Shown here: piece by piece, positions 31,364 to 63,515 of the stretch
How the letters are laid out: every line of letters begins with the position of its first letter
Numbering within the stretch: position 1 is the stretch's first letter
Sequence record: PP337211
Origin: Escherichia phage ERS-1
DNA: 64,000 nt
Direction: 5' to 3' (one strand)
Program-made: the position numbers and the translations under genes
The notes under the pieces: model-generated
The model's input: only the letters and a program-made list of their open reading frames with translations
Databases searched by the model: none
Told to the model about the DNA's origin: nothing

Positions 31364-31380
31364 GGTAGGCTCCTTCTGGG

Positions 31381-33400: not shown

Positions 33401-33799
33401 GAAGCTGATGGGGCCGGAGGAGTGGGACTGGAGCTTGCGGATCAGGTCGCCGCGAGGACGGAGGGTGCTGAAGTCAGGCCGATCCCGCCGCCCTTCCCGG
33501 TTGTGGCCTGCGGCTTCCGCGGCCCGGATTGACGGAGCCTTCGCCGTCCGCTTGAAGCTGTCGTTGATCGTCCCGGAGACGTAGCCTGTCCGTATGGCGT
33601 GACCTGGCGAGTGGAGCCCGTCGCGGACCGGATGCGGCCCGCCGGGAGGAAGTGGTACGCCTGCGAGGGCGTCCCGGAAGTCCGCGAAGTGCTGGTCATT
33701 GTCCTTCAGGGCCGCGGCGATCCGGTTCGTGGCCTCGCGGAAGGACTCGCCGCTGCCGCGGTACTTCTGGGCGTGTAGTTCTGTGAGTAGGGTACTTGA

Positions 33800-36640: not shown

Positions 36641-37171
36641 TCACCGTGACCAGCGTTGGTCCTTGCCGCTCCGCTTGGAGGGATACGTCCCTTCGGTTGG
36701 TGTCCGCGGCGATGGCGACGGCGAACCCGATTGGGACTGGATCGCCCTTTGAAGGTGGTCCCCCGGCCCCGAAGCTTCGGCCGCTTCTCTTCGGTTTGGA
36801 ATGATTCGGCTCCGGCGGAAGGGGCCGCGGTCGGGCGGCGGGGCACCGGCCTTCCAACTCCTCCGCCGGCGAGGTTGAATTGGGCTCGAACCGCTGCTGT
36901 CGCGGTCCCTGCGGTGTTGGTCGGTGGCGGCTGACGGCTGGTAGTCTTGTGGTCCTGTCTTCCAGGCGGTCGCCGGTGATCTGGCTCGTCCCCGTTGAAT
37001 TTGTTCCTCAACGTTTTCCACCTTTCCTTCCCCTCGCAGTTCTCTGCCCTTGAGGTCGATGTACCCGCCGTTGTCGGTCTGTCCGATCCGGCGGGCGCGG
37101 CTCCTCCGACCAAGGCGGTCATTGAGCTTGAAGCTGTTGGAATAATAAATGACCGTCTTGGCCGCGGTCAA
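36641..37171 (-). pseudogene. hypothetical protein; N-terminal 60 codons protein-like in a locally lower-GC stretch
   Basis: ORF track translation MTAAKTVIYYSNSFKLNDRLGRRSRARRIGQTDNGGYIDLKGRELRGEGKVENVEEQ... Confidence 0.3.
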
Positions 37172-38699
37172 GGTGTCCGTGCCCGTCGCCCCCGCCGCGG
37201 GATCGCCCTGGCCGTCGCGGGCCCGCTCCTCCGGCGGACGGCCTCCGCCCGATCACCTGCCCGTTATGGTACAGGGGCGCTCGCCCTGGAACCTGGGCCT
37301 CGGCGTCCGCCCGCTCGTTGCGTTTCCCCTGCCGTTGGCCGGACCGCGCCGACGCCGCGCTCGCGGAGGGCGTCCGGATTGCGGCGATGCCGCTTTGCAA
37401 CTGGGCCCGGTCGATGCCCTTGCGCGGACTCCTCCATCAATTAGGTGCCGGGCGACGGTTCGGCCCCGCAATTCGGGTACCTTGGGTTCCGCTTCGTCGG
37501 TCGGGAGGTAGCTGTGATCTGCTGGAGGCGGAGGAGCCGGGTGATGGCGAGGGCGGCGATGACCGGGGCGGGGCCCTCCGCGCCCGTTGGGGGCGTCCCC
37601 GTCGGGTCGGTAGATGGAAGCGGTTGGGTTTGCCGCCGTTTGCCCGGCCCGTCGGTGCGTCTCGGCGACGGCTCGCGGCGACCGCTTCCGCGTCCCGGCT
37701 CACCCTGTTTCCCGCCCCTGTCATGTACTCGTCCGTGCTGGTGATATGCTTGCCCTGCTCCGGGGGTCCGTTTGGGAGAACTGCTCGCCGGTACTGTCGG
37801 CCGGGAGGTCTGGTGCGCCTCCCTTCGTGACCCGGGAGGAGACGGGCTGGAGTAGGGCGGTCGCGTGTCGGGCGGCGAGAGCCCTTCTGCCGTCCGTCTC
37901 CGCCTTCGTTCTTCTTGGTCTTTGGCTTGAAGGCGGTCGGGTCCTGCTCTTCCGGTCGTGAAGTGCTGTCTTGAACTCCGTGAAGGTGCCCTAGCGGTTG
38001 GGCTTCTGTAGTTGTTGTTTGTCCACCATCTCGGCTGTACAGGTGTTGAAGGGTCCCGGCTGTCGGAGTCCCGGCTGGGACCTGCCCTGAACGGCGCGTA
38101 CTTCGCGGAGCGGAGGATGGCAGCTGGTGCGCTCCGCGGTCGGGTCTTGATGCAGCGCGCCTTCCCTGACGTAATGTAGGCGGCGCTTGTCCAAGAAGTC
38201 GGTTGGCCCGCTTCCCGGAGGTGGTCAAGGCTTCAGGCGATGGCGGAGCCTGGTGAAGCCCTCGTGCTCGATGACGGCCTTGACCGCCTGCTCGTGCCCT
38301 TGGTGTCGGCCTTCGGGCTCTGGTAGTGGAAGGCCCGGACGTGCTTGATCGCGTTCGGGTACGTGGTCCGGAGATTCCCTCTCAACCCAGTTGCGGTGCA
38401 CGCTGTTCGGGCGACCACCTCGCTGTCGATGAGCCGCGGAGCCAGAGCCAGAGGCGGTGTCGATGGTCAGCTTGGACTTGCCGGCGCCCTGTTCCCGGAA
38501 GATCGCGCGGGCTTCTTCTTCGCGGGAGCGTGTCACTCCTCGCGCTGGCGGTTGAAGGGTTCGGCTTGAAGGGGTATTGGAGGGCGGCCTCATTTCTCGG
38601 CGATGCCCGGAAGATAGCCCAGCTGGGCGGCGAAGGCGAGCGGAGAATCATGTGCGCTTGGGAGGGGGGCCCAACGCTCGACTTCGTGTGCTGAAGAAG

Positions 38700-38795
38700 T
38701 ATGAAGTGGAGAGGCAGTGGAAGCCCTGTGGGGCTGGGGGTTTATATATTCTTCTTCTTCTTCTTTAACTCACTCAACTTACTTACCTTAACCCC
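38700..38795 (-). promoter_or_regulatory. island 2 (inverted): GGTTAAGGTAAGTAAGTTGAGTGAGTTAA + (GAA)5 + TATATAAA on the minus strand
   Basis: Same motif grammar as islands 1 and 3 but a different microsatellite; flanks are not clearly homologous to those of islands 1 and 3. Confidence 0.65.
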
Positions 38796-41700
38796 CGCAC
38801 GGCCTCTTGGAACCTAGGCAACGGTCGCCGGTCGCCTCCCTGGGGGTCCCGGCGATTTATCGGGCGAAGTAGAACTGAACTGGAGAAGTGAAGTAACCTA
38901 AGCGAGGAGGGTCGGAGCTGTTACGGCGCTGGGCCTTCCATGGCGCTTGGGGCTCAGACCTTCGGGCGTGAAGGTAAGTATCCCAGCGTTCTCATTTGCG
39001 GAACCTCTCCTTGAGGCCCAGGAGGATCGGGGAGACCAGGCTGCAGAAGAAGATGCCCAGCAGTGGCACGGTTCCCCTTCCGCTCCTGTCCTCCCCGGAC
39101 TCGCGCCACTGGCGGAGGTGTTGGAAGTCCCTCTGGCGGCCAGCGGCTGCACGTGTTGGCCCGAGCTGGACTGTGTTTGCTTCACGGCTTCTGCCGCTTA
39201 CGCTGTTGGCTCCGCGCGGACGGCCCGGCTTCCGCGGCTCGCTTCGCCGCGTCCTCGCGGTAGCTTCGCCGCCCGGGTCTGTGGCCGGGCGGCGATGTCT
39301 TCGACTTGCTCCGGGCGGGGGTGTCGGTCCTGCGCGGGTCACCTCGGCTGTACTCCACGGAGTCCGGGCCCCTGGGGGTTCAGATGGCCTGTCCTGTCCG
39401 CGTCCTTCCCCTGCGAGCCCGTGGACCGTGTCGGCTTGCCGGGTGGTGTCGAGTATCGGCCCCCGATCCGGAGGCGGCGCCGCCGCCGGCGGCTTCGCGG
39501 TCGTGCCGTAGCCGCGGAGGAACTTCCCGCGCCGCCGTGCCGGTAGGCGCTGTTGGCATCCTCCGGCGGAAATGGTCCTCCCCTTCTTCGGCGAAGACTT
39601 CTGCCGTCGCCGCGCTCGAATAGCGCGCGATCCGTTGGCCCGTACCCGGTTGTTCGTGCCGGTCGGGCTCGCCGGGCTAGGCCATGCTCCCCGTCCGCGG
39701 GCGAAGCCGGTTGGGCGGTCGTGGTCGCGGACTTCGCGTGGCCCTTAGAAGGCCGTCGGTCCTGGCGGAGGAAAGACTGAAATTGGTTGTAGGGCGCTGG
39801 TCCCCCAGCGCGCCGTTCCCTTGATGCCCGTTCGGGCCGTCACTGATAGCCGTTGGGACCTTCGGTACAGTTTGGGTATGTTCCCGAGTCGCTGTTCCCG
39901 GTGCGACGTGGGATCGGTAGCTGTCCTGGCCGTCGCGGACCGCCGTGACCTCATCCGTTCCGGCCGCGGCGTTCTCCGTCGCCTCGTCGGTCGGTTTCTG
40001 CCGGCGCCGGTTGTGCCCGGCTCCGATTTTCGGGAGCGCGCCGCCGTTGGCCGCGTAGATGTCCGCGGTAGGTGTACCCGGCTCCGGCGATGTTCGCCGC
40101 GGAGTGGTCGATGACGGATGGATCCGCTGCGGTCCGGTCGCGGTGTGCCGGGTACAGGCTTGTCTCTCCGAGGATAGCCGAAGGATACTGGAGAACTGCT
40201 TTGCCGGAAGTTCCCGGGAGCGTAGGGGCGCGCGAAACGGCTACCAGCGCCTTCGAGTCCTCCGGCGGGCGGAGGTGTCCTACGCCACCCGGACTGGCCG
40301 GCCCTTCGCGGCGATGGTCTCGCCGCCTGTTATACGGAGCCGGTCGGCGCGCGGGCGTCCTCCGCGGAACGGAAACTGCGCCCCGGCTGCGCGTTCCGCG
40401 CAGACGAAGAATCGAAAGCAATCCCCACCCTGTCACTGACCCGTTCACCAGGTCGATAGCGTCCCTTGCCTGCGATTTCGTTGTCGGTTGCCGTCCACCG
40501 CTCCGTGGGGTTCGGTGCGGGAGGGCCTGGTTGGACCTGCTGGATGGAGGTCTGTATGGGCGTGATCGCGTTCGTCCTGGCCAGCGTGCGCCGCGGGGTC
40601 GCCGGTGGCCGCGTATGCGTAGGACCCGCCCGTGGCTTGTCCCTGGTCGGGGCTCTGGAGGTACTGGCGGGCTTGCCCTTTGCCGATCCAAGGCGGAGGC
40701 GTTGTCCAGCGCCTGGAGCTCGCCGAGGCTCGTTCGCCAAGTTGGAACAGTTCGCCTCCTCCGTAACGGCGGAGGGCGAACGGGTTGGGCGCTTGAACCG
40801 GGTCCTCTGCCGAGCCCTGGTTGCCCGTAGGTGGAGGACGGAAGGCCAAGGCTCGGTTGTGCTCCGCCGCATTCACCCGCTGGGCCGGTCTGCAAGTTCA
40901 CCCGAGGCCGCGGAACCATGTCGGCGAGGTGGTGCTGGTCCTGTAGAAGCGGTGCCACTTGGGCGTGTTGGCGCGTTCCGGCTTCCCCGCATGTGACGCG
41001 TGCGAAGGGGGTGGACTTCTGGGGAGGCTGCACCCGTGTTCGCTGCGTTCGCCGCGGTGCTTCATCCCTGGACAGTTCGCCGTCTGGCTCGCCACGCTCG
41101 TTGGGCTTGAATCGCTGCGAGGTCCTGGACGGGCCGGAGTTGCTCTGTGGAGCCTTGCGGACGGTAGGTTGTCGTGATTGTCGGTTTCTGCAGAGCCCGG
41201 GCGCTCGAGGACTCTGCTGGATCCGCGTCGGACTCGTCGCAACCTGCGGAGGTCGCTGCCAGCCTCGCCAAACCGCTTTGCCCCTTAATCGACCAGTTGT
41301 CGGTTGCGTGTAGGCAGGTTGCGGCTGGGTGGTGGTGTTGTGTACACGAAGGACTGATGGAGCTCCTGCTCGTCCGTCAATTCGGTCCAGGCGGCCGGCT
41401 CTTCCCGCGCTAAGGCAGGTCTGCCGCGCGAAAGGGGCGTCGTCGCGCGTTGATCCGGTACTCCGTCCCAGTCCGGGTTCGTCTGCTGTTCTCCGTGCAT
41501 GACGTGGGGGCGGGGTTCGCTGAGCCGTTGACGTCCCGCCTTCGCCGGATACTTGGCCTTGCCCGGAGGCGCTTCGCCTTTTGGCGCCTGGCCTTCCGAT
41601 AGGTGGCGGCCTGGCGCCCCTTCCGAAGGTCTGCCAGCACGCCCCGGAAGGCCCGGTATGACCGTGCCGAGTTTGGACTGGAGGTAGACTGTTCGCGGCC

Positions 41701-44700
41701 CGGGTTCGATTCCCCCCTTACGTCCGTAGCCCTGGACACCCTTCTCCTCCTCGCTGCCGAGGGCTCCGGGGTTGTTGAGGTAGATTTGCTGGCGAGGCGG
41801 TCCGTCTCCGCTCCTGCCGGTTCGTTGCCGATGGTTTCCTGGACGGAATCTCGACTGGCCGGTACCCAGGTGGGCGAGATAAACTGTAACCGGTGACGTC
41901 AGATTCGCTGCCGGGCTTCTCCGTCACTTGTAGCGCCGTTGTGATCGCGGTCGCTCCGCTCCTCCGCCCGGCATGCCCTCGTGGACGCGGCCCCGGTCCT
42001 GCCCGCGTCGGGCGGCGAAGGCGGCGCCGCGGTGTAGCTGGAGGCGCGGGCGGTGTCCAACCTGGAACGCTGCCGCTTTGTCCTCGCCGCCGTCCGTTCA
42101 CGGGACTGCTGGCCAAGTCCCGGACCGGTGTCGTTCGGCTCTTCGGCGAAACGGTCCCGAGGCGGTCCGGGATCGGTCGCCCTGGCTCCGCGGTTGGAAA
42201 TTGGAAGTCCTCGGGTCAAGCGGGTTTGGGGGTGGCCTGCTTCGGCGCAGGGCCACCGCTGCGTACGCCTGGGTCGATGAAGATGATCCGGATGCCCTGT
42301 CTCCTTTACGGGTCCTCCTCGGAAGATTGGCGCCGTTCGTTGGGTTCTCTTCGGGCAGAACGGCTGACCCCCGAAGTCGTCCGTTGTCGAACTCTGTTGT
42401 GGCGCATTTGGTGTGGTCGTCGCTGGGATAGGCCCGGACCGTCGCGTTGGCGGGTATCCCGCTGGTCGGGAGGTTGAGCGTGATCGCCTGCCCCGCGTGC
42501 GCGATGATGAACCGCCGTTCCGGGACCCTGCGCTTCCCGGTTCGCAGCCCCCGGCGAAGTAGCCGTCGGTGAAGGAGGAGAAGGCCGGTGAGCTGAGGCC
42601 CCGCCCCGAGACGCCCGTGAGGGTCGTGCTCCGCCCGGAAGTTCGCGGGCGGCCGCCCGCGGCCCGCAGGACGTGGGCGGTCGTCCGGTCCTCCGGCGGT
42701 GGGTCGGGCGGCGCGACGTGAGCCTGGCCTGCCTGGCTTCGGCCCCGCGCTCGGGTTCTGCCGATCCCCGCCGGTCTGCGGACGGCGAGCTGGCCGTCGC
42801 CTCGTGGTAACGCTGGACGGTGAGCTGGACGATGTCGGTGGGCGGCGAACCGCGGAATTGATCAGGAAGCCGATGCCCTTACCGCTTTGCCGGTGCCGGT
42901 TGCTCCGGGTATTCCTGGTTCTGCTCGAAGGCCCCGCGCTCTGACCTGGACGGAGTCTGGGAACCCCTGCCGACCCTTGCTCGTCCGCTGAGGTGTAGTG
43001 CCGGGATCGCGCGCCCCGGGCGGCGGGCGTGCTCGACCGGGTAGGCTTTGGCTGCTCCGCTCGCGTGCGTTGTGCGTTGCGGTTGAATCTCCGGCGGACT
43101 GGAGCTTCGGAGGGACCCGGTTGGAGTTCCGTCGAGTCTACCTGATCCGCGTCCTGGTGCTTTTGCTGGAAGCCGATTGGCGGATGCGACTGGCGTTGAT
43201 GTTGATCGGGGCGTCCGGTCTGATCGACCGCCGTGCCGTCCTGCAGGCCGTCGCCGCGTTGATCGTCCTGGCGGCCGTTCCGTCTGTCCGGAGGATGCCG
43301 ATGTGAGCGCGCTCCGGTGGGGTCGCGGTAGTCGTTGCTGGCGTGCCCTTGACGCTCTGGGCTGGCTCGCCGGTCTGGGCGATCCGCGGTTGTTCTCGAA
43401 GGTCGGAACCCGGAACGGGCGCGCGTCCTGGCGCCGGCGAAGGAACTTGCGGAGTTCGTGACGTCCTGGAGTCCTGGAGGTAACTGTAGGGGTGTCCGGT
43501 TGTGCGTAGGTCGGGGCGATAGAAGCTGGCCCCGCCGCGGTCCCGTAGTCGCGTGTCGGCCCGGGCTCGAAGGCTGTCCGTCGGCGCCTCGCCCGTTCTC
43601 GGCGCCTCGTCGAGATGTCAGGTGCCGAGGAACTGCGTGGGGGCCGCGGCGGGTCCGTCGACGTTGTCGCTGAACTCGGTGCGATTTCGGTGAACCGTCG
43701 TAGCCCGAGGTCGCCCGCGAGACGTTGCCAGGACCGCCGAGGCGCCGGGTACGATCCTCGGGTTGGCGAAGGTTTCGGCCGGTGGTCGGTTCGGTGCGGA
43801 GTCCCGGCGGAAACGATACCCGTGCTGCGGTCGCGCTCTCGCGGTTGGATCTCCCGGTTGACGATCGGCGCGCTGTCCCGGTAGTCGGAGGCGGTCGTGC
43901 TCGATGTTGATCCGGTCGTGCCCGCCTGTGGTTCCCACCTGTTGGGCCTCGGGTCGGAGGCGACGGCCCGGGTTGCGAGTCGGCCGGCTGGTGCCTGGTC
44001 TCCGCCCGGCCATTTCCTGGTACGGGATCGGATAGGTGACGTTGAAGGACTGGCGGGGCTCTCGTGCGTGCCTCGCCGCTCCGACCTGTCGTCGGTCGTG
44101 AGGCACGTCTGTTTTCCCGTCGTGACCTCCTTGGCGGGGCCTCGAAGATGTACGGGGCGACGATGCGCGAGCCCGACAGCACGTCGGCAGGTCGCCGTAC
44201 GACTGTCCCGTCCCGTCGAAGCGGAAGATGGCGTTGATGTCGGGCGGGCCGTCCGTGGTTAATGCTGCTGATAGGTCTGGTCTCCGGCCGCCCCGTGTCG
44301 CGGGCGGGATGGCCTCCTGGGTGGAAAACGCCGCCGCCGTTCTGAACCTGGATGTTCTGAAGGTATCGGTTGTCGAAAAGCTGTTCGGGTCCCTTGATCG
44401 CGAACTGCTGCTTCCTCTCCTCAGGTTTGCCGTTTGACGTTCGAGGGGCGGATGTGGACGCGGTTGTAGTAGTTGTTGTAAGCTAATGCCCTGCCGTCGA
44501 AACCTCCCCGGCTTCGCTGATGGGAAGGCTGTTCTGGACGGAGCCGAAGCCGTCCGTGGTTCGCTCCCGGGTAACGTTCTGGGCGGGCTTTGATCGTCTG
44601 CTGGACCAGGAGTCCCGCCCCACTGCCGGTTCCGGGCGGCCCCTGGAGACGGTGCCCTGCCAAGGCTCGCCTGGACGACTGTGTCAGACCTTTGTACCAT

Positions 44701-47700
44701 TTCCCCCGTTGGGATGGACCGCCCGCCTTTTCTGGTACGGGTGGAGCCTTCCGTCCCATCTGGTTGGGTGTGACCTTCCTCCCCCGGCCGGCAGGCCGGC
44801 TCGCCCTGCCCATTGGATTCCCCACCGGACTCGGGTACTCCTCGTTGCGGTTCGCTGAAGAGTTGATTGCAAGGACAAGCCCGACCCTGTTGGGGGTCGG
44901 CGAATAGTCCACGGGTTCATCCGTGAGCACCGCCTCCGCCGGCCCTGACCCGCTCTAGCGTAGGTCGGGCCGGCGCCAGGAGTGACCCTCCGAATTGTTC
45001 AAGGAATCGAACGAGCTGGAAGGAGACCCTGCCGTCGTCGTTGGCCGTGGTATAGTGAACCTGCCGACCGAAGGGACCTCCGGCAGTCCGTAGTTACCGC
45101 CGTCGGATCCTGCGGGTGGCGTTTCCGGTATAGTTGCGGGATGTTCCCCGCCCGTAGCGTAGAAGAACCGCCCCGCTCCGGGCCGCGGGTCAGGTTGGTG
45201 AGCCGAAGCCCTGGGCGCTGGAAGATAGTGGATGCCACCCTTGGCCTGTAGATGGTCTTGCTGTCCGGCAGCGGTAGGATGGCAATGGCCCCAAAGTAGA
45301 TGGGCAGCGGAAGATTGGCATGCCCTTGTCCCCGTTCGAGGTCGAGTGCGCAGCGGATAGCCGGGCTGGCGATCCGGCGAGCCCCCGCGCAGCCGTCCGA
45401 ACCGTTGACCGCGATTGGTATCGCCCGGAGCGAGGAACCGTTGACGGTGATGGTTTCGTTTGGGCAGCTGTGGTTTAAATAGGCCGTACCCTCGTGAGGG
45501 GCTCGCGCCGGGAGCCCGCCGCCACGCGGCCGTTTACCCTGGCCGCGGCGAAGTCGTGGCTGAAACGGGTTGTTGTCCGGTCCGGTCGTGCACCGGGTTC
45601 GGCTTCACCGGTTTGTCGTGTAGAGGTGGTGCTGGTGGAACTGATTCCGGTAGGCGGTGCTGGAGTTGTGGGCCCCGCCGTTATAGGTTGTCGTGTTCTC
45701 CGCGGCGTTCTGATACCCGCTGATGCTGAGGTCCCTCGGCTCTCGACCTCGCCAGCCAAGGGAGCCCGCTGGAGTAGGACGGTGGGCCAAGGACCCACCA
45801 CGCCTTCGGTAATTGCGGTATGGAGCTTGCCTGAGCTCCGGTCGGTCGTCCCGTGTGGCCCCCGCCGCCGCCGCTGGACGGCGAGAAGGGGATGCTGGCA
45901 GGATTTGTGTCGGCCCGGCTCTCCGGTTGCGGGCTCGAGCTCGCCGCCTCCCGAAGTATGCCTTTAGCCGTCTGGGTTGCGAGGCGTCGCCCGGGCGGCC
46001 TTCGCCTGCTCGGGAGCCTGTCGTTGCCGGTGCCCGGCACGTCCGCGGTGCCGTTCGCGTAGGAATAGCGCCGCTCGGAACGGGAGCGGCGTCCTGCGGG
46101 ACCAAGGACCCCCCGACCGCCTGCGGGTAGGGGAACTGGTTGGGCGTAGGTGCGGTGACGCAAGCCCGGCAGCCTCCCTCAGGCTGGTCGCGACCTCGGC
46201 GAACTGCAAGGAGCGGCCGAGGCGCGAATGAACAGGGCAATGTGGCGTTCCCGGGGACGCGTCGGGACGGCGAGCGGGTATTGAGCCCCGAACCGGTAGG
46301 GCGCGCCCGGCTGGTCGAACGGGGCGTCGGTTGGCGTCAGTGCCCGCGTACCCGTTCGTTGACGCGTTGTACCTGCCTGCGGCGCTGTCGTACTCTGACC
46401 TGATCTCGGCGTAGATTTCGGGTTGCAGTTGCCCGTGCCTTCGGGATGACCTCCGAGCCGAAGTGGTTGGCCGTCGGTCCCGTCCGCCTCGGCGAGGAGT
46501 TCGGACCTGAAACGTTCGTTGTTCCGCTTTGGATGGTTCCTGGCAGGTCGCCCGGCCAAGATGAGCCCCGGCAGTTCCGGCAACCGCGAAGGTCGCTGTT
46601 CCCGAGGGAGGCGGGCGTCCGTCATGGTCAGGCTGTAGTCCGTGAAGTCCCGTCGTCTGAGCATCGGAGGCCAGGACCGCGGGGGGAGGCCGTTGGATGT
46701 GCCGTATGTCGGATGTGACTTGTCCGCCGCTTGACTTCGCGGGCCGTCCCAGCTTCTGTGAATTGAAGCTGACCCCCGGATAGGTTCGAGGCGTACAAAA
46801 GCGGCCAGTTATTGTGGGGTCGTTCTGTGTTGGGTTCGTGGGGTTGTGCTGAACGCGTGGGGATGGTTCTTTGCGAGGCTGGTGGCAGGGTCCGCTGGCG
46901 GCCGGTATGGGTGGCGATGTTGTCCCGGCGGTACGGCGCGCCTGCCGGGCTGGCCATGCGCCGCTCCTTCTGGGTCGCGTTCGTGGTAAGGTGATCTGAC
47001 TCGCCAGAAAGTCTCGGGTTCGTCGCGGTTCCGATTTCGTTGCCTTGTCCTTCCCGGTTGTTGTGACCTGGCGGACCGCGCCAGCGTTGCGTCGGATCCC
47101 GTTTGGAGGACCCGCTCGCCCGAGGAGCTGGTGGTAGTCCTGTTCGGGCTCGATCCGTTCAGGCCCGGATCGCGGACCGACCGCCTGCTGCCCCTCGCCA
47201 CCGCCTGACGCGCTTCGCCCCGCTCCTGGGTCGGAGTACGGATGGACCTCGCTTTGCCGGCGTAGGCGGAAGGCGACCTGCTGCGAGTCCTGCCGCCTGC
47301 CCCCCGCCAGCGGGTCCCCTTCTGCCAGGCTGGGCCTGGCGTCCTGGGCGATGATCTGGGCGACGTTCGCGCGTCGCCGCGCCGGTCGCCGCCGCGAGGG
47401 CGTAGTTGGCCGGGGCGGAGCGGAGGCGAGGGCCTTCTGAACTGCCCTTGCCGTCAATGGTTGCCGCGGCGATAGCCGCCGCCTTGCCGATTGCCGCCTG
47501 CTTCGCTCCCGACCGGACCTGCCCTGGAGGGTGGAGAAGAAGTTGCGCTGGGTGGCGGTCCGCCTGTGATCTGGGCCTGGACCCGAGCCTTCAATCGTGG
47601 GCGGTCTGCTCGCCGACGAGGTCGGCTTGCCGCGTTGCCGTTGCGGCTTTGCCTGTGCCGCCAGGTATTGTGCCGGGCTTCCACCGTACCCGCGAGAGGT

Positions 47701-48499
47701 CCGCGTCGGACTTCCCTAACCGGTTCGCCTGGGCCTGCGCGATCGCCCCCGCGGCCTGGCCGTTCGATCGCCGTGAGCTGGGCGGTGAACTCCTGCTGGG
47801 TCCGAGGATAGCCTGAAGGACCTGGTTGCGGGTTTCCGCCGCCCCGGGTCTCCCTGAACGGTGCTGCTTCTCGCCAGCTGCTTCGGGTCTGGCTCCCCAG
47901 GACGACGCCTTGATAGCGGCGTCTGTTCCCATGTAGCGGTGCTGCTGTTCGACCTCGCCGCCCCCAGGTGAGGCGGCTCGCGCCTCCTCCTCCGGCTGGC
48001 GGTTGATCGCGCCCGGGGCCGGGCGTGGTCCTTCCGCTGCTCCTCGACGGTGCCTGACCTGGGCCTTGCGCTCCGCGGTGACGGCTCGCCCCCGGTTTGT
48101 CAGAGGGGGCGAGGGCGTTGGCGTACCCCGCCGAGCTGCCCGGTGCGCGGGGATCCTACCTGTTGGTTGAGTTCATCCTGGAGTCTCGAGGGCCTTGGCC
48201 GCCTCCTCATCGCCTTTCCCGGAGGTCCGGCGACCACCGCCGTCCCTGTTCGGCGTTCCGACTCCAGCCGCGGCGACCCGCTCCTTGGAAATGTCGCGCG
48301 CGTTGATCCGCTTGTCCGGATCGCCTAAACCGCTTTCCGGATCGGCGAGGACTTCCTGGCGGAAGCCTTCCTCGGGTTCGTGCCGATGTTGGCGCCGGCG
48401 GCCTTCGGCCCTCGACGTCGCTGGTCACCGCCGCCTTCTGGCCGTCCGTCGTCGTAAGGTTTTGCCGCCGGCCTTCGCGCGTTCCCCGAGCTGGCGGGA

Positions 48500-49248
48500 A
48501 GTCGTTCAGGGCGTCGATGACGGAGCTGCGGTTGAGGACCCGCGGTTCCCACGCCCCGGATCGTCCCGCCGATCCGGTTGATGTCCGAAGGACGGTGCGG
48601 CTTTGTTCTGCCTGGGCTTCCCTGGTTCTGCACGCTGGCCCCGGCCGGTCGGTTGTGCGTGCCGTCGCCGCGAGCCTGTTGCCCGTCGAGAACTCCCCAC
48701 CGTATTGGCGAGGCCGGTGATGATCGGGCCGATGTCCTCCCGGCGGCGCGCGTCAGATTGCCCAGAGTGGTCGTGTCGTCAATCCCCAGCTCGATTCTCG
48801 TCCCGGAACAGGGTCAGGGCGGTGATCACGGGAGGTGAGGACGATCAGGAATGCGCCCAAGGGGTTCGCGGCGATGGCGGCGTTGAGGGCGACCACCGCG
48901 GTGCGGACCGCGTTGAACGCAGCCGCGCCCCCGGCGACGATAGCGAAGCCCGCGCCCAGGAGGACCTTGGCGAGGGTGTCCGGTTATTGCTGATGAAGCT
49001 GTTGATCGCCTTGGACTGGCTCGCTCGCCCCGGTCGCCCGTCCAGTTGCCGGCTCCCTGGCCCTCCCGTTGTTCTGAAAGGACTTGGAAGGACTGGCCGA
49101 TGGTGGACGGACTGGGGTCGTTCCTCCGGCCTCCGTCCCGGGCGTTCTTGAAGGCGTCGAAGATGATGTCGGCGCTGATCTTCGCTCCTTTCCTTATCCT
49201 TGCCGGAGTTCGCCGCGGTTGTCCCGTCGCTTGGCCATCCTTCGCCAT
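48500..49248 (-). pseudogene. tail tape-measure-like protein fragment (bounds uncertain, gene probably longer)
   Basis: Minus-strand stretch VLLGAGFAIVAGGAAAFNAVRTAVVALNAAIAANPLGAFLIVLTS (~48841-48975), resembling conserved tape-measure segments; protein-like N-terminus MAKDGQATGQ...KISADIIFDAFKNARDGG at 49248. Confidence 0.35.
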
Positions 49249-52200
49249 GGTCTGGCTGTTCGGACGGAGTTCGGTCGATCGCTGCGGAGGACGCCCAGGC
49301 GCAGGCCCTGGGCCTGCTGGACGTGCCCGCTCCAGCCTCGCCCGCGCTCGCGCCTGGACGGGCGACGGCTTGGTCCCTGTGACTTCGTGAAGTCGATCTG
49401 GCTCCTGCTGCGAGGTGCCGCCCCTTCGCGCTGTCGGCCGTCGGCCGCACGTCTCCCGGACCCTTGGGGACTGGCGGGTGGAGTTCGAGACGCAGGCCGA
49501 CCATAGACCGCCCCGAGGTATGGGTCTTCAGGCCGTCGCCCGGAGTCGGTTCTGAGGTTGGCGAGGCTGTCCTGCCCCTCCAGTTCGCGCGGGGCGTGTA
49601 CGCGCCCTGGAGGTGGTGGTTCTCAGGAAGTCCCCTCCCGTCCGCGGCTCCTCGCCCGGACTCGCCGATGTCCTCCCGTCGCTGAACGGCGCGCCAGCCT
49701 CGTTCGGTGATGATGATGTCGGTTGTGCCGGCCGTTGGCTCCCCGGTCCCCGTCAGATGCCCCTTCCCAACTGTAGGCCGGACGGCTTCGAGCACCGCCT
49801 GTTCCAAGTTGCTGGGGCTCGGCGGAAGCACCCGTCATTCCCGTTGTTGGATGTACGGAGGTTGTTGGTGATGCGCATCTCTCCCCGGCACCCAACCCGC
49901 GAATGACCGATTGGCTTGGTCGATAGCGGCCTGAGTGTCGGCGGCTTCGGTGCTGCCTGCCTCGCCGGCGAGAGGCGTTGTTGCGGGAGGAGGGGGCGGA
50001 GCCGGTCGCGGTGATCCGGTTGGATCGGGCGCGGCCCGTGTCCGGGCGTCCGGTGTCGGCTTGATCCGCGGCGAGGGCGACCTTGCGAGCGAGCGTGTTA
50101 GATGCTCGCCACCTTCGGTCCCGGGAGGAAATGCGTCGGCCCTGAGTCGCTGAGACTTGGCTGCGCTCGCCTTGTACAGACTTCTGGCGGCTTGCTGGAT
50201 GGTCGGGGGCTCTCCCCTGCTGCTCGCCCTCCATCCCTGTCTACTGTAGGTTTCTGGAATGGAGGGTGGCGGCACAGGTCCCTGGCCTGTGCCGATTCTG
50301 CCGTCACGTTGTTTAAAAATCCGATGTAGTACAGGCTCGAATGAAGGTTTACTCCGGGGCGTTCTGTATGCGGTCGGGGCGGTCCGACCCGTGCGTCGCT
50401 CGATGATCTTCGCCTCACTGGGCCTCGCTCGAAGCCGTAGGCGACTTCCCGGTTTCCCGTGCCGTCTCCCCGCACCTCGTCGCGGAGCGTTGCGTCGGCG
50501 GACTGCTCGCGGAGGTCCCGGCTGTCCGGTGCTCGAACCTGTTCGGACGTCTCCTCGTCGAAGTCCGCTTCGGCTGGCCGTCCGGGCCTTCCCGTCGATC
50601 GGTTGGGACCGCCGTCTCCGCGAACATTCCTCGGCACCTGTCCGCGGGGTCGTTGTCCGTGTCCGGTTGGACGGCCTTTCTGTACGGGCGGGTGGCCTTC
50701 TCCGCGCCTTCGAGAAGGCGAGCGTCCGCGGCCCCGGCGCGCGATCTCGATGCGGATCGGTCTGCCGTCCGCCGTTGGCCGTACCGGCGGAAACGTTGTC
50801 CGTTTCCGGGCCCTCCGTCTGGTCGGGCCCGTTTGGGCCCTCGCTCTCCGTTTCTCGCCAGGGTGAGGGAAGGGAGGGCCCGCAGCCTCCCGGGTCTGTT
50901 GATTATACGTCCGCCGTGTTCGGAAGGTAAGGAATTCGTTTCCAGTGGGCCAGCCCCGCCGCCCTCCCGCTCCGCTCCGCCAGGCAGGGTGATCCGCGGC
51001 CTGTCTGCGCTTTGTCGTCGCCCGGGTGAGCGGCATGTCCGTGGTTATGCAGTTGCTTGCCAGGCGAAGTCCTTGCCGTCACGTTGAGTTGTCGCGGTTG
51101 CTGGACCGCCTGGGTTCCGCGAAGTAGGCGGTGACGTTACCCGAGCCCGGAAGGTGCCCGCGGAACGCTCGAAGGCCCCGAGGACCTGCGACCGCCTTGT
51201 CGGGCGAGACGTTGTTGTTGATCGTCGGGTCAGCTCCGCTCAGGAAGGCGAACAGCGCAGTGGGGTTCGAACTCGCCCGCGGTCAAGCCTTCCCATGATC
51301 CGGCTGAAGTCCGAGGAGGTGTTGAAGGCCGGTGCGTCCCAGGTCGGGACGGGCGCCCGACTTCGTCGCCGGAGCTGTCGCGCTGTTCGTTGTCGGTCGC
51401 CGCGAAGCCGGGTCAACCGTGACCTTGTCGGCCTGGCGAATCTGGAGGCTCGGTTGTTTCTGGACCGCCTCCTGGTACTCACGTGCCGTTCGCGTCCTGG
51501 CCCGGGTACGTTCGAGCTGGCAGGTGCGGCGCTTTATCGTGTTGGCGTCCCGCTCGTCGATCCGATCCTGCCGGAGCAACTGTGGATGGTCTTGCCCGTG
51601 CCCGTCTCGTCCTCGGCGGTGCCGGCGGTCTTGTCGGTCTGATGTAGGTGGCCGCGACCGCGCGGACGCGGGCGAAGCCGTCGTCGGCGGTGTCGGCGGA
51701 ACTGGTCGCCGCCGCGTCCCCGCTCCGTCACCTTGCCAGGCTGGGTTTAGGCCTCGCGCCCAGCTCGCGGACCTGGTGCGGATAGCTGCCCAGTTGTCGA
51801 CCGTCGTTTGCGGAGCCCAACTGGAAACCAACCTCTCATCAAAGCTTCGCCGGTCGCCGGGGGCGTCATCCACTGCGGTTTGAGTCACCACCACGGTCGT
51901 GGCCGTGGAGCTGGCGACGTTCTTCAGGCCGTTGTTCGAGGCCTGACCGAAGCCGGAGGCGCAGGGCCAGATCACCGGCGAGGAACGCGACCCCTCGCCT
52001 GCCCTGAGCCCTGGGCGTAGGCCCCGCCGTGCCCGTTGCTGGGAGAAGGGCGGCGGTTCCGTTGGTCGGGACGTCGCTGGCCTTCTCGCGGATGTCCGCG
52101 AGACAAGCTGAAGCTGTGGTTTGTTGTTCTGGTCTGTTCTTACCCCAAACTGCCCAGGCGTCCGTGTTGTGGTCGTCGGCCCTCTGCGCTGGCCGGACGG

Positions 52201-55200
52201 GTCGACGGGGTTCCGGCTACCGTGGTCCTGGCCCTGATCAGCTGTTCGTAGCCGTTGGGGCTCCTGCAGACTGTCGGCGGCCCTGTTCTCGATCGTGTCC
52301 TCCTCCGCAGGCGCAGGCCGGTGACGTTCAGTCAATCTCGTTAGCCGTTGCAACCTCCGGATCGAGTGGTGGGTCGATCCGTTTGTCCCGTCTGACTCCA
52401 CCGCCGATATCCGCGCCGTCCGGGCCAATCTCCTGGACGCGCGCGTTGCGGAACGGATCGCCGCTCGCGCGCCTCGCCCCTCGAGGCGTCCCGGGCGATC
52501 ATCGCCTGTTTCCGGCGGGTAGGCCTTGGCCTCCGGGCCGCGGGTGAAAACTTGTACCGTGAACCCGGTCCGGTACGGTAAAGCGGCGACCGCCCGGCTG
52601 CTCTCGAAGGTCGCGCCGCGAAGTCGGTGCGGCGCAACGTGATTCGGCATAGGGCTGTCCGCGGGCGGCAGGGTCGCCCGCGTCCTCCTGGGCGGCCGCG
52701 GATCGGAGCCCCGCCGTTGAGGGCCGGGGCGTCCGTGGTCGGCTGGTGTTGAAACCTGCCGGGTGATTCCGTCGCGGGCGCTGTCGAAGGTCGGGAGGGT
52801 CATTGGCGCACCTGCAATTTCCGTTATCGCTCGCCCGTTCGGGTTCTGGTTTCGGCGATGACCTTCCGGTCTCCGGAGCCGGCGGCCTTCGACCTCCGGC
52901 GGAGCCGTGCGCGTCTCTCCGCGGGCGAAGTCGCGCTGGTCGCCCTTGCGGATCGTCGGCCGTCGATGTAGCGTTGCTGGTGTTGGACACCGCTTCAACC
53001 GGTGGTCCGCCGCGACGTTGCCGCCCGGCTTCCGGCTTGCCGCCGGGATCGGGGCGGCCCCGGCGGTGAAGCCCCGCAGGTTGCGGCCTGGCCGTTCTTC
53101 TTGACCGTTCTTGGCCCTGCGCGATAGCGGGTAGTACTGTGCCCGACCACCCGTGCCAGGCCGCCGGAGTGATAAGCTGGTGGTACCTGCTTCTGGCTTG
53201 TCGCCGCCGGAGTATTGGGTCGGAATACGGCCCCGCCGTCAAGGCGACGGACTCGCTGACGGGTCGGACCGCCTTCCGACTTCAGGACCGCTGTCGCCGA
53301 GGCGTCTTCCGCTCCGGGTTGGGGTTCTGCTTCGCCAGGGCGCGCGAGTCGCGTGTTCTTCACCCTTTGCGGCATGTCGTCGATGTAGTAGCGGTGCGGT
53401 CTGGCGTCCGTCCGGTGCCCTTCCCGGTGGTCGCGGCCTGCTGCTTTCTCGCCTTCAAGTCGAACCGCTGTTCCGGTAGTCGGTCGCGCGGATGACCGCG
53501 GCCTCGGTCCCTGGGGGTCCGTGAGCCCGCGAAGGAGTCGCCCCGGTCGGCGCGGTAGGTCTTCGAACCCTCCCCGCCACGTAGGGTTCGCCCCGGCCAC
53601 GGCTCCCGCGTCGTCTGGACGACGGGTGCCGGCGCTCCTCCAAGGCTTGATATTTGGCCCGGCGGATCGTCGATGTTCCGTGGCCTCCGGTTGATCGGCT
53701 GGTTCCTGTTCCCGTACCCGGGCTGAGGGACGCGGGGACTTGAGGCTGGTGCGTTCCGACGTGCCGGGTCGGGGCGGGGCCGGGTCGTCCGCGGGCGTTC
53801 AGGCGGCGGTGATCCTGTAGGACGCCCGCCGCCCCGCCGTTGTAGCTGGACGCCACGAAGCCCCGCCGTTGTGACCGTCGCGCCCGGGCTTCGCGGCGCA
53901 TCTTCGCCCGTGTTTTCTGTCCAGTTGCGTCATGGCCGTGAGCCTGGAAAGCCCGGGTCAGGCGGTTTCCCGTGTCGGTCGCGGCAGGGAGGCGTGCGCC
54001 GCGCGCTCCTCCAACCCGTCCAACCGCTCGAGCCGTCCGCGCGATAGGCTACCGGGATTGGCGGCTGAACCCGTATCGCCAGGTCCGCTCTGCCCGAGGG
54101 TTCCTGGCGGGGAGCGTGCGTGAGGCCACATGCTTTTCCTGCTCGATCCGTCCGGCGAGGGTCCGGGTCGGCCGTGGTGACCTCCCGCTGCTCGACCTGC
54201 CGCGGTGCCTCCTTCGCCCCCGAAAGGGACGAAGGCGCGGGCGTCCTGGGCGAGGGCGACCAGCCGAAGGCCCTGTACACGCGAAGGCGAAGTGAATCTG
54301 GCCCTCGCCGGAATGGTTGGAAGGTGAAGCGCTGCGGGGGCGATGGCGAGGACCCCAGGCTCCCTGCCCCTCCCAGCTCTCCCGGCTGTGTGAGCCTTTC
54401 CCAGTGTCGGCCCGGGCAGTACGGCGGGTGATCTGGGCGGTGATCCCTGCGGCGCGAGGGACGCTGTCCGTTGCGCGAGGGTCACGACGCGGCCGGGGTC
54501 GAATCCGTACGGGACCACGCCTGGCGATGAAGGTACCGGCCGGTTGTTGAAGAAGGGCGCGAGGGCGCTTGTCGGTCGGAAGAAGCGGGTGACGGCGATG
54601 TTCATCGTTGGTTCTCCGGTTGGTGGGGGCAGGGTAGTGGGTGGACGGCGGACGCGCCCAGGCTGAAAGGGGCCTTTCGGCTTTCCCGACGGCCCGGTCG
54701 CCGTCTGCGGCGACTTCCCCGGTAGCCGCCGAAGTCTCTGGCGGTGGTTGGCGCTCCGTTCGGCCCTCGCCGGGGTGGACCTGCTGTCCGGATCGGCTGG
54801 GCCTGCAGGAGAATTGGAGGCGCCCCGCTGATTGCCTGGTCCTGGGGGTCCTGTGCAGAGCGCGGCTCTTCCCCGCGCCCGGGCGTCCGCTCGCCGTCGG
54901 GCGAAACCCGCGCCCGGAAGGTCGGCGCCTCGCTGTCGGCGGGTTTTCCCCCGTCGGCGGTCTCGTTGTTGGCCTGGCGCGTAGGCGTTCCCCTCCCGTT
55001 CCCGGCGCGGACCTCCTCCTCGCAATTCGTCAGCGGCCTCCGCCGCCTCCGCGGTCGCGCTCCGCCTTCCCGGAGCCGTAGCCGTAGCCGTAGCCCGCGA
55101 AGGTGATCCAGTGCGACGGTGAGGTGCACGCCTGCCGTGGCCGGCTTGGAGGAGGGGAAGCCGAACACGGGGGCTTAACCTCGCCCGTCCGTTGCCCTTG

Positions 55201-58200
55201 ATCGGGGCGGCGGGGCCGGAGGGGCCGGAGCGGACTTGCCTCCGGCGTTGCCTCCTCCAGTTCTGGCCGTGACGTGCGCCGGTTTCTCAGGCGTCAATGG
55301 TCGAGGCGGTTGCCTTGGTGGTGCCGGATCTTCGCCGGCTGTTCTCCTTTGCAGAGTCGGTCGGGTTACTGAGCGGCCTTCGCCTCTCGCGGGCGTGGCC
55401 CGGGCGACGGCTTCCACGTCAGCGCGGGCACGCCGGCGGAGCCCTGCCCCGCTTCTCCCGGCGGCCATCGTGGGCTCTCCGTCCTTGGTCCGAGTGAGAG
55501 TGTCGTCCGCCGGGTCCAGGCCGAGGACCGCCTTCTGAGCTTGGCAATCGGTTTCCGCGGTTTGGCCCCCTTGCCGGACCGGCGGGACCGCCGGTTGCTC
55601 GTCTCCCTTTGGGTTACCCCCGGCTCGCCCGGCTTCGGCTTCGCTCCGCCGCTGAGGCGTACGCGTTGCGGTTTTGCCGCTCCCGTCCGGGCGAACGTCG
55701 CCGTGTACCGGCTGTCGGCCGTCGCTGGCAGCCTTCTCTGAGATTGCTGGCCCTTCCGGTACCTTTGCGGGGTGCCTTCCGGTAGGCCTGCCGTTGCGTC
55801 TCGAGGAAGCGGGCGTGGCGCTGACCTCCCGCCGGAGCGGCGATGGTCAAGCGGCCCTTGTCGAACGGTAGGGCTGACTGCCCGGAGCGGACCGCGGCCC
55901 GCCTGGGGGTCTGGTCAGGACGAAGGTTGTTTGGATGATGGTGGGTCCCGTACGGTTCTCCTGGGTCAGCGGCTGTTGCGTTGCGGCCAGGACCCGCGGG
56001 TCCACAGCAGCGTCGGCAGGGTATCGCTGAGGGCGTCGCCCAGGCTCCGCCGTCCGTGATCGTGCCCGGGCGCTCGATGGGGGATTCGCCCCCGGCGGCG
56101 TGGACTGGATCCTGGTCTGCCGGTTGCCGGTAGTGCGTCCGCGGCTCCCGCGATGGCTAGGGTGTTCGTGGCGCGGGACGCGGCGTTGATCCCGGTTGTG
56201 TTCGGAAGCGGTCAACGGTGCTGCGGCGACCTGTCGGCGGTGTTGTCGGTCGCGTCTCCGCACCGGTGACGCTGACATGGGCGCTCCGTCCGCGGCCTCC
56301 GCCCGGGTACCTCGTCGAAGGTCCTGCTGTTCCGTCGGCTCCGGCGGCGATTCGGTCGGTTGAATCGTTGAGCCCTGCCCTGCCGTCGCCGTCGAACTTC
56401 GCCTGGTGGTCCGCTTGGCGATGGTGTCGGAAGCGGCGACAGGTGCCGGCGCTCCGCGCCGTGCGTCAGGTCGCGGCCGGAACTTGTTCCGGTCCAGGGT
56501 TAGGGTAAGTGGGCGGATGGCTTCTCCTGAGCGTGTTTCGGAAGGGTGACCCGCCCTGGCGGCCCGCCCTTCGGGTATGACGGGGGCCCTCCCCCGGAGG
56601 GCGGGACCGCCTTAGCTGGCGACGCCGGCGTGGTGCCCGCCCTCCGCCGAAGGGCGCCAAGCCGGTACCACTTGACGCGCCAGATGTGCTCGTCGGAGTC
56701 CTCCACTCGCCCGTCGTCGTGGTCCTGGATGCCCGCGGCCTGGGTCGTGGTCGGGTCGGCGACGCCGTGGGTGCGCGAACCGTTGTCTGCAGTACCTGCC
56801 AAGATCGTGGTGGTGTGGCGCCGGTGCCCTTGGTCTGGTTGGTCGGGACGTAGTCGTTGCGGAAGATCGGGGTGCCGGAGTAGGCCGGACCTCCGCGCCG
56901 CTGGCTCCATGCCCGTCATGGATGGTGGCCGCGGTGCGGAGTAAGCGCTGTAGCTGTGGACGCGGTGCGGTTGGTGCGCAGCCCGCTGGCTGTCCCGTTG
57001 GCGAGGTCCTTTGCCGTGATGGCGAAGCCGACGCCGGAGCCGTTCGCGCCGGTGGTCGCTTTCTGACCCGGAGGCGGGCGGCCGGATCGTGCCCGCCAGT
57101 CTGCGTCGCCCGCGCCGGCGCCGTTGATCGGTGGTTCCTGCAACTTGCGGCCTGGCGGACTTCGCCTTGGAGGCGATCTGGACCTGCGGTTGGTCGTCGC
57201 CGTCGCCGCAGCGGTAGCCTGGATCAGGCTGCTTGGCTTCGCGGCGTCACCCATGATGGTGGTGAGGTCGGAGTTGACCTTGGTGAGGTCGCAGCGGCCT
57301 TACCGTGTGGCGCCGGAGAAGGTCGTGCGATGGGCCTTTACGACGTTGCCGGTGACGTTCTCGCGGTTGTACGCGAGGCCGTCGCCTTCGATCAGTCGAG
57401 GGCGCCGAACCCGGCGGTTGACGGTGATGATGTTCTCATCCCTTGCCCGTGCCGTTCGTCCCTGGCCGCTGGCGCTTTCGGGTAGAAGCTTAGCCCTTTA
57501 CCGGCCTTCTCTTCCGGAGTCGATGAATCTTGCTGGCGGTTTTGCCGTGCCGGATTGCCGGTGTTCCGTCGCGGCCCGCGCAATTCACGCGTGGGCCTTC
57601 GCCTCTGGCGTATGTCGGTAGCGGACACCACAGTACGGTTGGCGAAAAGGGAAGCCCCCTGGCCGGGGGCCCCTGGGCCTCCCCGGATCCGTCCCTCGCC
57701 CACCGCGGCCCGCCTTGAACTGACCCTTGGCGAGGCCCTGGGCGATCCTTTTCGTTGGCCGGTTGGTGACCTTGCCCTGCTGGCGCGGAGGCGCTGACCG
57801 CCGCAGGTGCCGCCGCCCGCCGGGCTTCCGACTCCAAAGGGTGGTCCTGGCTTCTCGTTGGCCTTCGGTTTTTTTGCTGACCTGCTCGCGGATGGTCCGT
57901 GGGCTGGCCGGTTGCTGCGATAATGTGGTCGCCCTGGATCACTGAACACCTGACTTTAGTGCCTGCTGCTCCACCCCTTCCTCTACCTGGGCTTGATGAA
58001 CGGTGAGTTCCGGGGACGCCCTTCGGCCTCCGCGACGGTGGCGGGTGGTGCTCGACCTGGTAGCCCGTGGCCGGTTCCTGGAGGGCTTCGGCGCGGGCCT
58101 CCGGCCTTCTTCAGGCCCTTCGCGCGCGCATTGGCCAGCTCTGGTGAACCTTGTCCGGTTCAGGCTGGCTTCGCCGCCCTTGGCGGTTTCGTTCTGGAGT

Positions 58201-59798
58201 TCGGTCCGGCTTCGCGCCGACGCTCGGCCTTGATTTCCTCCGGCGTCGCCGAAGCTTGCCCGGCTGTTGGCGAGGTCTTGGCCTTCGCTTCGGCGCGAGC
58301 GGCCTTGAGGGTACGGTTCCCTGCCGGTTTTCCTCACCTCCCTTGTGGGCTTCGTCCGGGACGGTCTGCCCTTTATCGCCCTGCTGTAAGATTCCCCGGA
58401 ACTGTTCCGGGACCTTGTCGATGGAATCGACCGGAGCTGAATTCAGGGTGGTGGAATTGTATCCTCGTTTGCCGTGGATCACCCGCCTGTCCCGGCGCCT
58501 TGCGGTTTGTGTCTGTAGCCTCTGGGGCTTTTCGCGTCGGTGCCCGCCTTGCGGAAGGCGTCCGGCTTGCGCTCCGCGAGTCAAGAGCCTTGCTGTTGCC
58601 TGATCCGAACTGGTCTGTTCCTGCCCGCCCTCCCGGCTGCTGGCCTTGGCCCTCGCCCCTAACCTCCTTCCTGGAAGGAGGCGGGCTGCGCTTCAAGTCC
58701 TGACACGCGGTCGCCGCCGGAACCCTGCCCCACGTTCTCCGCGGCCCGGCTTTCCCCTGACGTCCTGGATCGGCTTGCCCGCCTCCTTCGCCTTCCGGCG
58801 GAAGTCGATTTCACGCTTGGCGCGGGTCCGGGGTCGTTGCGGTCGGGCGATTGCCCGGAGGCCCTCGCCGTCGATGTAGGCGACCATCCGACCGGCAGTT
58901 GAAGTGGGCCGGGGGCTTCGCGTCCTTGGGCTGGAGCCGGGGATGTCCGTGGCAGCTGTTCGTCGCCCGGGCTCCCGCGGCCGTCCCGGGTGGCGTGCCC
59001 TGCCGTGGCCGACCGTCCGGCGTGCTCCTCCCCGGCCTTCGCCGTGATGATGTCGCTGTCGGCGTCCCGGGTCAGCCCGCGCGGTATTGGACCCGCGGTC
59101 GACCGCGGTTCGGACGATCCCCTGGGCGTCCCGCCGGGCGTCGAGCGATGCCGTCCTGGGCGCGTCTGCGCGTCCGACCCCGCTGCGATGTCGTCAATGG
59201 GCTCCCCGTTCGTCTGTCCGAGCTGAAGGGCCGTGGTCCTCGCTGCTGGTCAGCCGCCTCCGGTGCTGAACCTGTCCTGCAGGAACCGCCCTGGAACGGG
59301 CGGGAGGTGGCGATGGCCCGGAGCTGGTCCGCGCTTCATGCCTTGAAGCCACCTCAATCGTGATGGAGGATGTAGGCAGGTCGATTTTCGGCCTGGCCTT
59401 CGAGGACGGCGAGCTGCCCCAGTCCGCCCGGCGGGTCTTGTACTCCGCGAGGGCCGCGGCCCGGGCTCCGCGGACGTCCGGCGGCCTTCCTGCGTTCGCC
59501 GGTGAAGTCCGTGCGCGGCCCTCGAAGCGGGCGAGCCGGGTGCGCGGTGTTCGGTCGGCGCGGTCCGCCTCCTCCTAGCCGGGCGACCCGCTCGGCGACG
59601 CCCGCGCTGTAGCGGCGCAGGTCATTTGGTGACGCAACGCGGCGTCCCCGGTACTTCGTTGAAGGTGGGCATTGCCTTCTCCATTTCTTCGGTCCGTTTG
59701 CTGAAGTGGTATAAGCCCGGTAATTGAGCGGCCGAGGACGATGCTCAAGGAGCCAAAGCCAAGAAGTGCCGGGTTCGACTCGCCTCCGGATTCCGGTT

Positions 59799-59843
59799 GC
59801 TTCGCCGCCTTCGCCGCCTTCGCCGCCCTCGCCGCCCCTCGCC
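59799..59843. repeat. tandem 9-bp repeat (GCCTTCGCC-like) x ~5
   Basis: gcttcgccgccttcgccgccttcgccgccctcgccgcccctcgcc read directly. Confidence 0.7.
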
Positions 59844-63190: not shown

Positions 63191-63419
63191 TTGCGGTTCG
63201 CTCCCCCTTCGGCGTGTACTGTTCGTCGGTTGTGCTGCGTGGCCACCCGTCCCGGCCTCGGTCGGGCTTTCCCTCGCCGCGAGTATAGCGTGAGCTTGGG
63301 CAATAGCCAAGGGCGGGTCGCGCCCGCCCGCGGGGAGAGGTCGAGGAGCGTGTGGGCGGATTGCCGGCAGGCGCGCAGCGTCCTCCGCTTAGGTTCGAGG
63401 GCTGCGTTCCACTTTCGTC

Positions 63420-63515
63420 CGAAAAAAAAAAAGTCAAGCGGTAAAGGTTAAAAACCTGCCCTTTATATACAGACAGACAGATAGATACTTAACTCACTAA
63501 CTCACTTACCTTAAC
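63420..63515 (-). promoter_or_regulatory. island 3 (inverted copy of island 1): GTTAAGGTAAGTGAGTTAGTGAGTTAAG + (TATC)2(TGTC)3 + TATATAAA + TTGACT + T11 on the minus strand
   Basis: Reverse complement aligns base-for-base with 22560-22700, with substitutions and a different microsatellite composition. Confidence 0.7.

Follow-up and report, generated by a model that had tools for sequence, protein, structure and literature searches.

Phage tape measure proteins (TMPs), such as lambda gpH, T5 pb2 and that of TP901-1, form an extended, largely helical oligomer that occupies the lumen of the tail tube. They set tail length during assembly, aided by chaperones from genes directly upstream, and are ejected at infection, when their hydrophobic segments are thought to help form a channel across the cell envelope. 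Among the phages closest to the DNA described here (PaTs-2, LKO4, NEU2024, BL4, AN14, YuA and M6; genus Yuavirus, Mesyanzhinovviridae), the corresponding gene product, gp69, appears in GenBank records of YuA as a "structural phage protein" or a "putative tail length tape measure protein".

In phage M6, about 30% of thymine is replaced by 5-(2-aminoethyl)deoxyuridine (5-NedU) (Lee et al. 2018, PMC5889632), and a 5-NedU-type replacement has been predicted for YuA, LKO4, AN14 and relatives (PMC5889632). The pathway operates after replication (Lee et al. 2021, PMC8989533), and its enzymes are a 5-hmdU DNA kinase, an amino acid:DNA transferase, a PLP enzyme and a radical SAM enzyme. Restriction digests of M6 DNA implicated TG and TC contexts (PMC6449724), and a related thymine modification (dapT, Acinetobacter phage 15599) is found at TG sites (PMC13458397). 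Our search of the literature on nanopore sequencing of Yuavirus or 5-NedU DNA returned nothing direct.

Here we examine a hydrophobic, Gly/Ala-rich coding stretch within 48500-49248 of a longer DNA, and the many frame breaks in the genes around it. We put the probability at roughly 0.9 that this is a Yuavirus tape measure gene whose frame breaks stem from raw nanopore errors at TG, likely reflecting hypermodified thymidine.

Composition of the window

Base composition divides the window (the whole 64,000-nt stretch of DNA that was analysed) into a first block of 33% GC, extending to about 5000, and a remainder of 65-72% GC, in which A and T become strongly asymmetric from about position 26000. 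The high-GC part consists of two separate Yuavirus genome stretches in opposite orientations, hereafter blocks A and B (Table 1), which overlap on PaTs-2 13967-17491. Based on blastn, PaTs-2 is collinear with block B over about 39 kb and with block A over 21 kb, and this collinearity across 5042-25688 and 26188-63823 supports membership of the genus Yuavirus. Raw identity to the Yuavirus relatives is only 79-83%, due to basecalling errors.

Adapter and barcode flanks were detected at 4690-5041 and 25689-26130. GGTGCTG-barcode-TTAACCTTAGCA units are present at the read junctions, and the pieces are separated by ATTGCT-AAGGTTAA-barcode-CAGCACCT together with its complement, a pair of short additional reads and one isolated barcode. 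The sequence ATTGCTAAGGTTAA occurs five times in the window, where none is expected. We take the adapter and barcode flank sequences to be those of the Oxford Nanopore ligation adapter and native barcodes, and the barcodes in the window to be 02, 07, 04 and 05 of the kit.

A nanopore read takes in the whole 5' adapter and, normally, a truncated 3' adapter. The complete top-strand adapter, GTACTTCGTTCAGTTACGTATTGCTAAGGTTAA, gave a 33-nt exact match on the minus strand only (26071->26039, with none expected by chance), and just before it stands TGGTGTTTTT, similar to the adapter's non-complementary arm; matches on the plus strand went no further than 14-mers, corresponding to the last 14 nt of the adapter. 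Because the full top-strand adapter is confined to the minus strand, this strand gives the read direction, and in block B it is also the coding strand. The alternative orientation, in which the plus strand would be the read and the errors would fall on the A of 5'-CA-3', is ruled out by the same observation. Taken as its reverse complement, the window is a string of uncorrected Oxford Nanopore native-barcoded reads, that is, several molecules strung together as an unsplit read or as concatenated reads.

Table 1. Position, strand and basis of assignment of features in the window, in order of position.
Feature	Position	Strand	Basis or remark
T4-like (Tequatrovirus) read, a-gt to nrdD region	1-4667		96-98% identical to phage ime09
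Block A, second Yuavirus read	5042..25688	minus	PaTs-2 35418->13967; different barcode and opposite genomic strand to block B
Complete 5' sequencing adapter of next molecule, ATGTACTTCGTTCAGTTACGTATTGCTAAGGTTAA	26039..26075	minus	fixes read orientation
3' end of block B read: GGTGCTG, 24-nt barcode, TTAACCTTAGCAAT	26084..26130	minus	synthetic DNA
Block B, Yuavirus read	26188..63823	minus	PaTs-2 40008->61810, then 8->17491
Hypermodification gene cluster	30445->26441	minus	collinear with NEU2024 and LKO4; window copies frame-broken
5-hmdU DNA kinase	26980->26441	minus	NEU2024 orthologue, Pfam HMUDK (PF18748) 2.7e-17
Radical SAM enzyme	28424->27036	minus	NEU2024 orthologue, Pfam Radical_SAM 1.8e-4
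HNH endonuclease	28844->28486	minus	between radical SAM and PLP genes
PLP enzyme	29618->28840	minus	NEU2024 orthologue, Pfam PALP (PF00291) 5.7e-10
Amino acid:DNA transferase	30445->29619	minus	NEU2024 orthologue, Pfam ADDT (PF18724) 1.7e-46
gp77 homologue	39853->39380	minus	BL4 mapping
gp76 tail protein homologue	41912->39853	minus	BL4 mapping
gp74 and gp75 homologues	42306->41899	minus	BL4 mapping
gp73 homologue	43080->42319	minus	BL4 mapping
gp72 homologue	44682->43077	minus	BL4 mapping
gp71 homologue	45604->44684	minus	BL4 mapping
gp70 homologue	47046->45616	minus	BL4 mapping
TMP homologue (YuA gp69 / BL4 XAV38795)	49733->47055	minus	global alignment to BL4, coordinate mapping
Hydrophobic Gly/Ala-rich TMP segment, LLSVGAGFAIVAGG...LIVLTSVITALTLF	48809..48985	minus	mapping to BL4 (aa 262-322)
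Counterpart of TMP_3 domain	49589->49038	minus	Pfam on BL4 TMP (aa 53-244) and mapping
Tail completion/Neck1	50161->49735	minus	BL4 mapping
Tail chaperonin	50392->50147	minus	BL4 mapping
Tail assembly chaperone	50844->50416	minus	BL4 mapping
gp66 homologue, major tail/structural protein	51994->50903	minus	BL4 mapping; 5' end further upstream

A Yuavirus tape measure gene in a conserved tail module

The stretch under study encodes, on the minus strand at 48953->48840, the peptide AGFAIVAGGAAAFNAVRTAVVALNAAIAANPLGAFLIV, which lies inside a 76-aa stop-free stretch (48983->48756). A preliminary description made from the letters alone had likened this Gly/Ala-rich hydrophobic stretch to tape measure proteins, and comparison with annotated proteins bears out the likeness: over its residues 275-312, the annotated TMP of Pseudomonas phage BL4 shares 37 of 38 positions with AGFAIVAGGAAAFNAVRTAVVALNAAIAANPLGAFLIV, and the 76-aa fragment on its own matches PHROG 3336 ("tail length tape measure protein", E = 7.8e-8). 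The same fragment gave no match when searched against Pfam. The intact orthologue from BL4 (XAV38795) matches Pfam TMP_3 (PF20155) with E = 7.7e-64, and phrog_3336 over its full length (residues 1-941). The peptide is the hydrophobic segment directly downstream of the TMP_3 domain, and in all annotated matching records the 3 kb around it falls on the annotated tape measure gene. The interval 48500-49248 accounts for only about 28% of that gene.

Based on sequence comparison, 49733->47055 is the gene for the tail length tape measure of a Pseudomonas aeruginosa siphophage of the YuA/M6 type (Yuavirus). It is alike to YuA gp69 (YP_001595892) and BL4 XAV38795 in its position in the tail module and in its collinearity over the whole 2.8 kb; it differs from them in having no intact frame and in being about 5% shorter (2,679 nt in the window versus 2,826 nt in BL4), and we put both differences down to read error. 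The single long uninterrupted open reading frame (about 940 aa in the genus) is absent from the window's copy of the gene: searched by tblastn, the BL4 TMP gave six HSPs that hop among all three minus-strand frames, and 3' of the peptide the translation resumes in a different frame (...LIVLTS then VITALTLFRDE...). The tape measure gene is already known, and there is nothing new in the gene itself. By analogy with known TMPs, its product would fill the tail tube, set tail length together with the chaperones encoded upstream, and be ejected on infection.

The surrounding region places the gene in a typical context. Aligned on the minus strand, 39000-52000 matches 55 phage records, 53 of them from Pseudomonas phages of the YuA/M6 group, at a raw nucleotide identity of 78-79%, and 35 of the 55 cover at least 80% of the query in one place. 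Mapping of the BL4 annotation by global alignment showed that the tail module (51994->39380) is fully syntenic with Yuavirus, with gp66, the chaperones, Neck1, TMP and gp70-gp77 in the same order and on the same strand as in BL4. The TMP thus occupies its usual site, preceded by the tail assembly chaperone genes and followed by those for the distal tail proteins. The minus-strand tail gene cluster that had been surmised from protein-like fragments was thus recovered gene by gene, 39380-51994 mapping to gp66-gp77 of YuA/BL4. Within the module, the gp70 homologue (45600-47258) is patchy against PaTs-2 (one piece at 70%) and aligns throughout to BL4; the alignments suggest that gp70 may be a variable tail gene within the genus.

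Annotation of the relatives is uneven. The GenBank record of PaTs-2 (MH791403.1) is flagged UNVERIFIED, and several of its genes are entered as "similar to" misc_features and not as CDS; the tape measure gene is among these entries and is interrupted by the record start. Several related phage records are wholly without annotation. Published assemblies of this phage group may have met the same sequencing difficulty.

Frame breaks reflect read error

The genes had been described at the outset as frame-broken, and the alignment to BL4 agrees, with 43 gap events in 48500-49248, 39 of them frameshifting. Over the entire TMP homologue, there are 2,352 matches, 265 substitutions, 209 deleted bases and 62 inserted bases relative to BL4, and 173 of the 182 gap events are not a multiple of three. 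The differences are spread evenly over the three codon positions (133/170/171).

The overlap between the two Yuavirus reads (3,525 nt, terminase region) allows the same DNA to be compared in separate molecules. Relative to PaTs-2, 135 positions are wrong in both reads, errors confined to a single read number 419 in one and 488 in the other, and the same non-reference call is made in both reads at only 57 positions. These counts suggest that true divergence from PaTs-2 in the overlap is at most about 1.6%, and that the other 16-18% seen per read consists of errors peculiar to that read; as their barcodes differ, the reads are not certain to come from the same isolate, which weakens this argument but leaves it in place. 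The same read-orientation bias is present in both reads, which come from opposite genomic strands, and therefore a mutational or genomic-strand explanation is excluded. The tape measure gene is not decayed, and its frame breaks are basecalling errors. The quoted peptide is probably legible because the four TGs in its GC-rich stretch were all called correctly here.

Errors are centred on the thymine of TG

In read orientation, thymines in TA, TC and TT contexts were called correctly in 94-97% of cases, versus 23-33% for isolated TG thymines (no other TG within 5 nt). When miscalled, the isolated TG thymine was deleted (24-31%) or called as C (24%), A (14-16%) or G (4-6%). Accuracy was 0.73 at the position before this thymine, 0.26 at the thymine itself and 0.68 at the position after it; the footprint extends from about -5 to +5 nt, beyond which accuracy returns to a baseline of 0.92-0.93, and bases flanking TG further out have no effect on error.

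Synthetic DNA adjoining the insert behaves differently. In the barcode and flank at 26084-26130 (minus strand) all five TGs are correct, as are two TGs in the adapter. As adjoining synthetic DNA is correct at TG, the effect lies in the phage DNA and not in some general trait of the basecaller. Indels are very rare in the T4-like read that begins the string, and of its 85 coding mismatches 66 are at codon position 3; its differences from ime09 are real divergence, accurately read, and once codon-position-3 divergence is set aside the read is more than 99% accurate. A general weakness of the basecaller at TG was accordingly set aside, with barcode, adapter and T4-like read all accurate.

Several other origins of the signature were considered and dropped. 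With the read strand fixed as minus, CA becomes TG on the read strand, which disposes of an adenine modification (6mA, Mom-type or 2-aminoadenine); the motif being TG on that strand, a cytosine modification in CA was likewise abandoned, and so were an influence of the complementary strand on the motor protein and misincorporation, of the kind made by a polymerase, opposite a modified T. An effect of the motor protein at a fixed distance from a modified base was rejected as well, there being no secondary accuracy dip out to 25 nt on either side of the TG thymine. Real variation as the source of TG>CG differences shared by both reads was rejected too, since the two reads make nearly independent calls at such sites; their calls at CA sites are likewise nearly independent.

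A second effect concerns the A of CA, which in read orientation was called G in 11-18% of cases versus about 3% at GA. This substitution persists with no TG within 7 nt, and its dip is sharp and shoulderless. A modified T on the read strand does not account for it. It may arise secondarily when signal scaling is distorted in a heavily modified read, and this signal, which has no footprint, could be a pointer to something further.

Thymidine hypermodification as the likely cause

The same four-gene set as in the M6 5-NedU system is encoded in the block B read (Table 1). Pfam matches of the NEU2024 orthologues lie above the cut-offs for ADDT, PALP and HMUDK, and that to Radical_SAM is weak (22.1 bits versus a Pfam cut-off of 29.5). 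The HNH homing endonuclease gene in the cluster is also present in LKO4, PSP2, NEU2024 and Luminis and is absent in PaTs-2, relative to which the window has about 335 additional bases at this site.

With all four genes in the same read, an M6-type pathway acting after replication would turn TG thymines into 5-NedU, and a hypermodified TG thymine on the strand in the pore would make the basecaller fail within about 5 nt on either side. We infer that the frame breaks are likely due to basecalling failure at such thymines. TG context accounts for 32.9% of thymines (both strands) in the PaTs-2 genome, close to the share of about 30% modified in M6. In contrast to the TG and TC contexts proposed from the M6 restriction study, TC thymines here are read normally; the evidence from the present DNA is a basecalling-error footprint.

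We lean towards reading this footprint as a single-molecule, single-base map of the modification, in which it would occupy most if not all 5'-TG-3' sites of both strands, irrespective of the bases further out, and spare TA, TC and TT. If this holds, recognition of the TG dinucleotide by the 5-hmdU DNA kinase, or by the pathway taken together, would be strict, and that alone would account for the figure of about 30% of T. The error pattern at TG sites is in line with the preference for TG put forward from the M6 restriction study and with dapT in phage 15599.

Alternative explanations

Loss of frame across a tail module could also mark what is left of a Yuavirus-like prophage, degenerate and pseudogenised within a bacterial genome, with many real indels in its tail genes, and both the frame-broken state of all genes in 26188-63823 and the identity of only 79-83% to all relatives would fit such a remnant. 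We judge this very improbable. Block B is flanked by sequencing adapters and barcodes, and no host DNA adjoins it, its neighbours being the T4-like read and the second Yuavirus read; the differences track read orientation and not genomic strand, two reads of one 3.5-kb region carry different "mutations", and codon-position bias is absent. Nor does ~93% identity outside TG sites, alongside one frameshift per ~15 nt, resemble decay. The idea that the Gly/Ala-rich stretch comes from a membrane transporter or some other non-phage membrane protein can be given next to no credence: its annotated TMP counterpart matches at 37 of 38 residues, the PHROG 3336 match points the same way, and the peptide sits within a 2.7-kb nucleotide match to tape measure genes in a conserved tail module, all of which outweigh the hydrophobic, low-complexity nature of the peptide alone and the silence of Pfam on the 76-aa fragment. 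The preliminary description had named a transporter or non-phage match as the outcome that would speak against a tape measure gene, and none appeared in the nucleotide, Pfam or PHROG comparisons.

The T4-like read, more than 99% accurate in the same string bar its codon-position-3 divergence, bears on whether we are dealing with a generic low-quality nanopore read of unmodified DNA, as might come from old chemistry, a wrong basecalling model or high GC. Raw single-molecule reads can be around 80% accurate, and even at a distance from TG the baseline error is about 7%, as such a read would have it; but adapter and barcode DNA beside the insert is perfectly read, including 5 TGs, and the excess error is limited to one dinucleotide with a k-mer-sized footprint, which leaves generic noise improbable.

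Raw nanopore error at likely hypermodified TG thymines, by contrast with decay, implies neither pseudogenisation nor a new tail architecture in the tape measure gene, and the "frame-broken genes" across 5042-63823 are basecalling error and not biology. Hypermodified Yuavirus DNA would then defeat standard nanopore basecalling at TG in a strand-specific manner, and this failure at TG sites would explain the poor assembly or annotation of such phage genomes. A strand-aware consensus is suggested as a remedy, as TG on one strand is the much better-read CA on the other.

Other features of the read string

T4-like DNA normally carries glucosyl-hydroxymethylcytosine, and the T4-like read is accurate despite this. 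The junctions at 4668-5041 and 25689-26130 carry four different barcodes. A short reverse-strand T4-like read occupies 4781-4877, a lone barcode lies at about 25690-25720, and a 240-nt AT-rich read at 25770-26010 matches a T4-like helicase loader gene at only 87%. T runs, which are A runs in read orientation, at 4675-4690 and 25998-26010 adjoin barcode flank at the start of two inserts, and may be a basecalling artefact of the read start.
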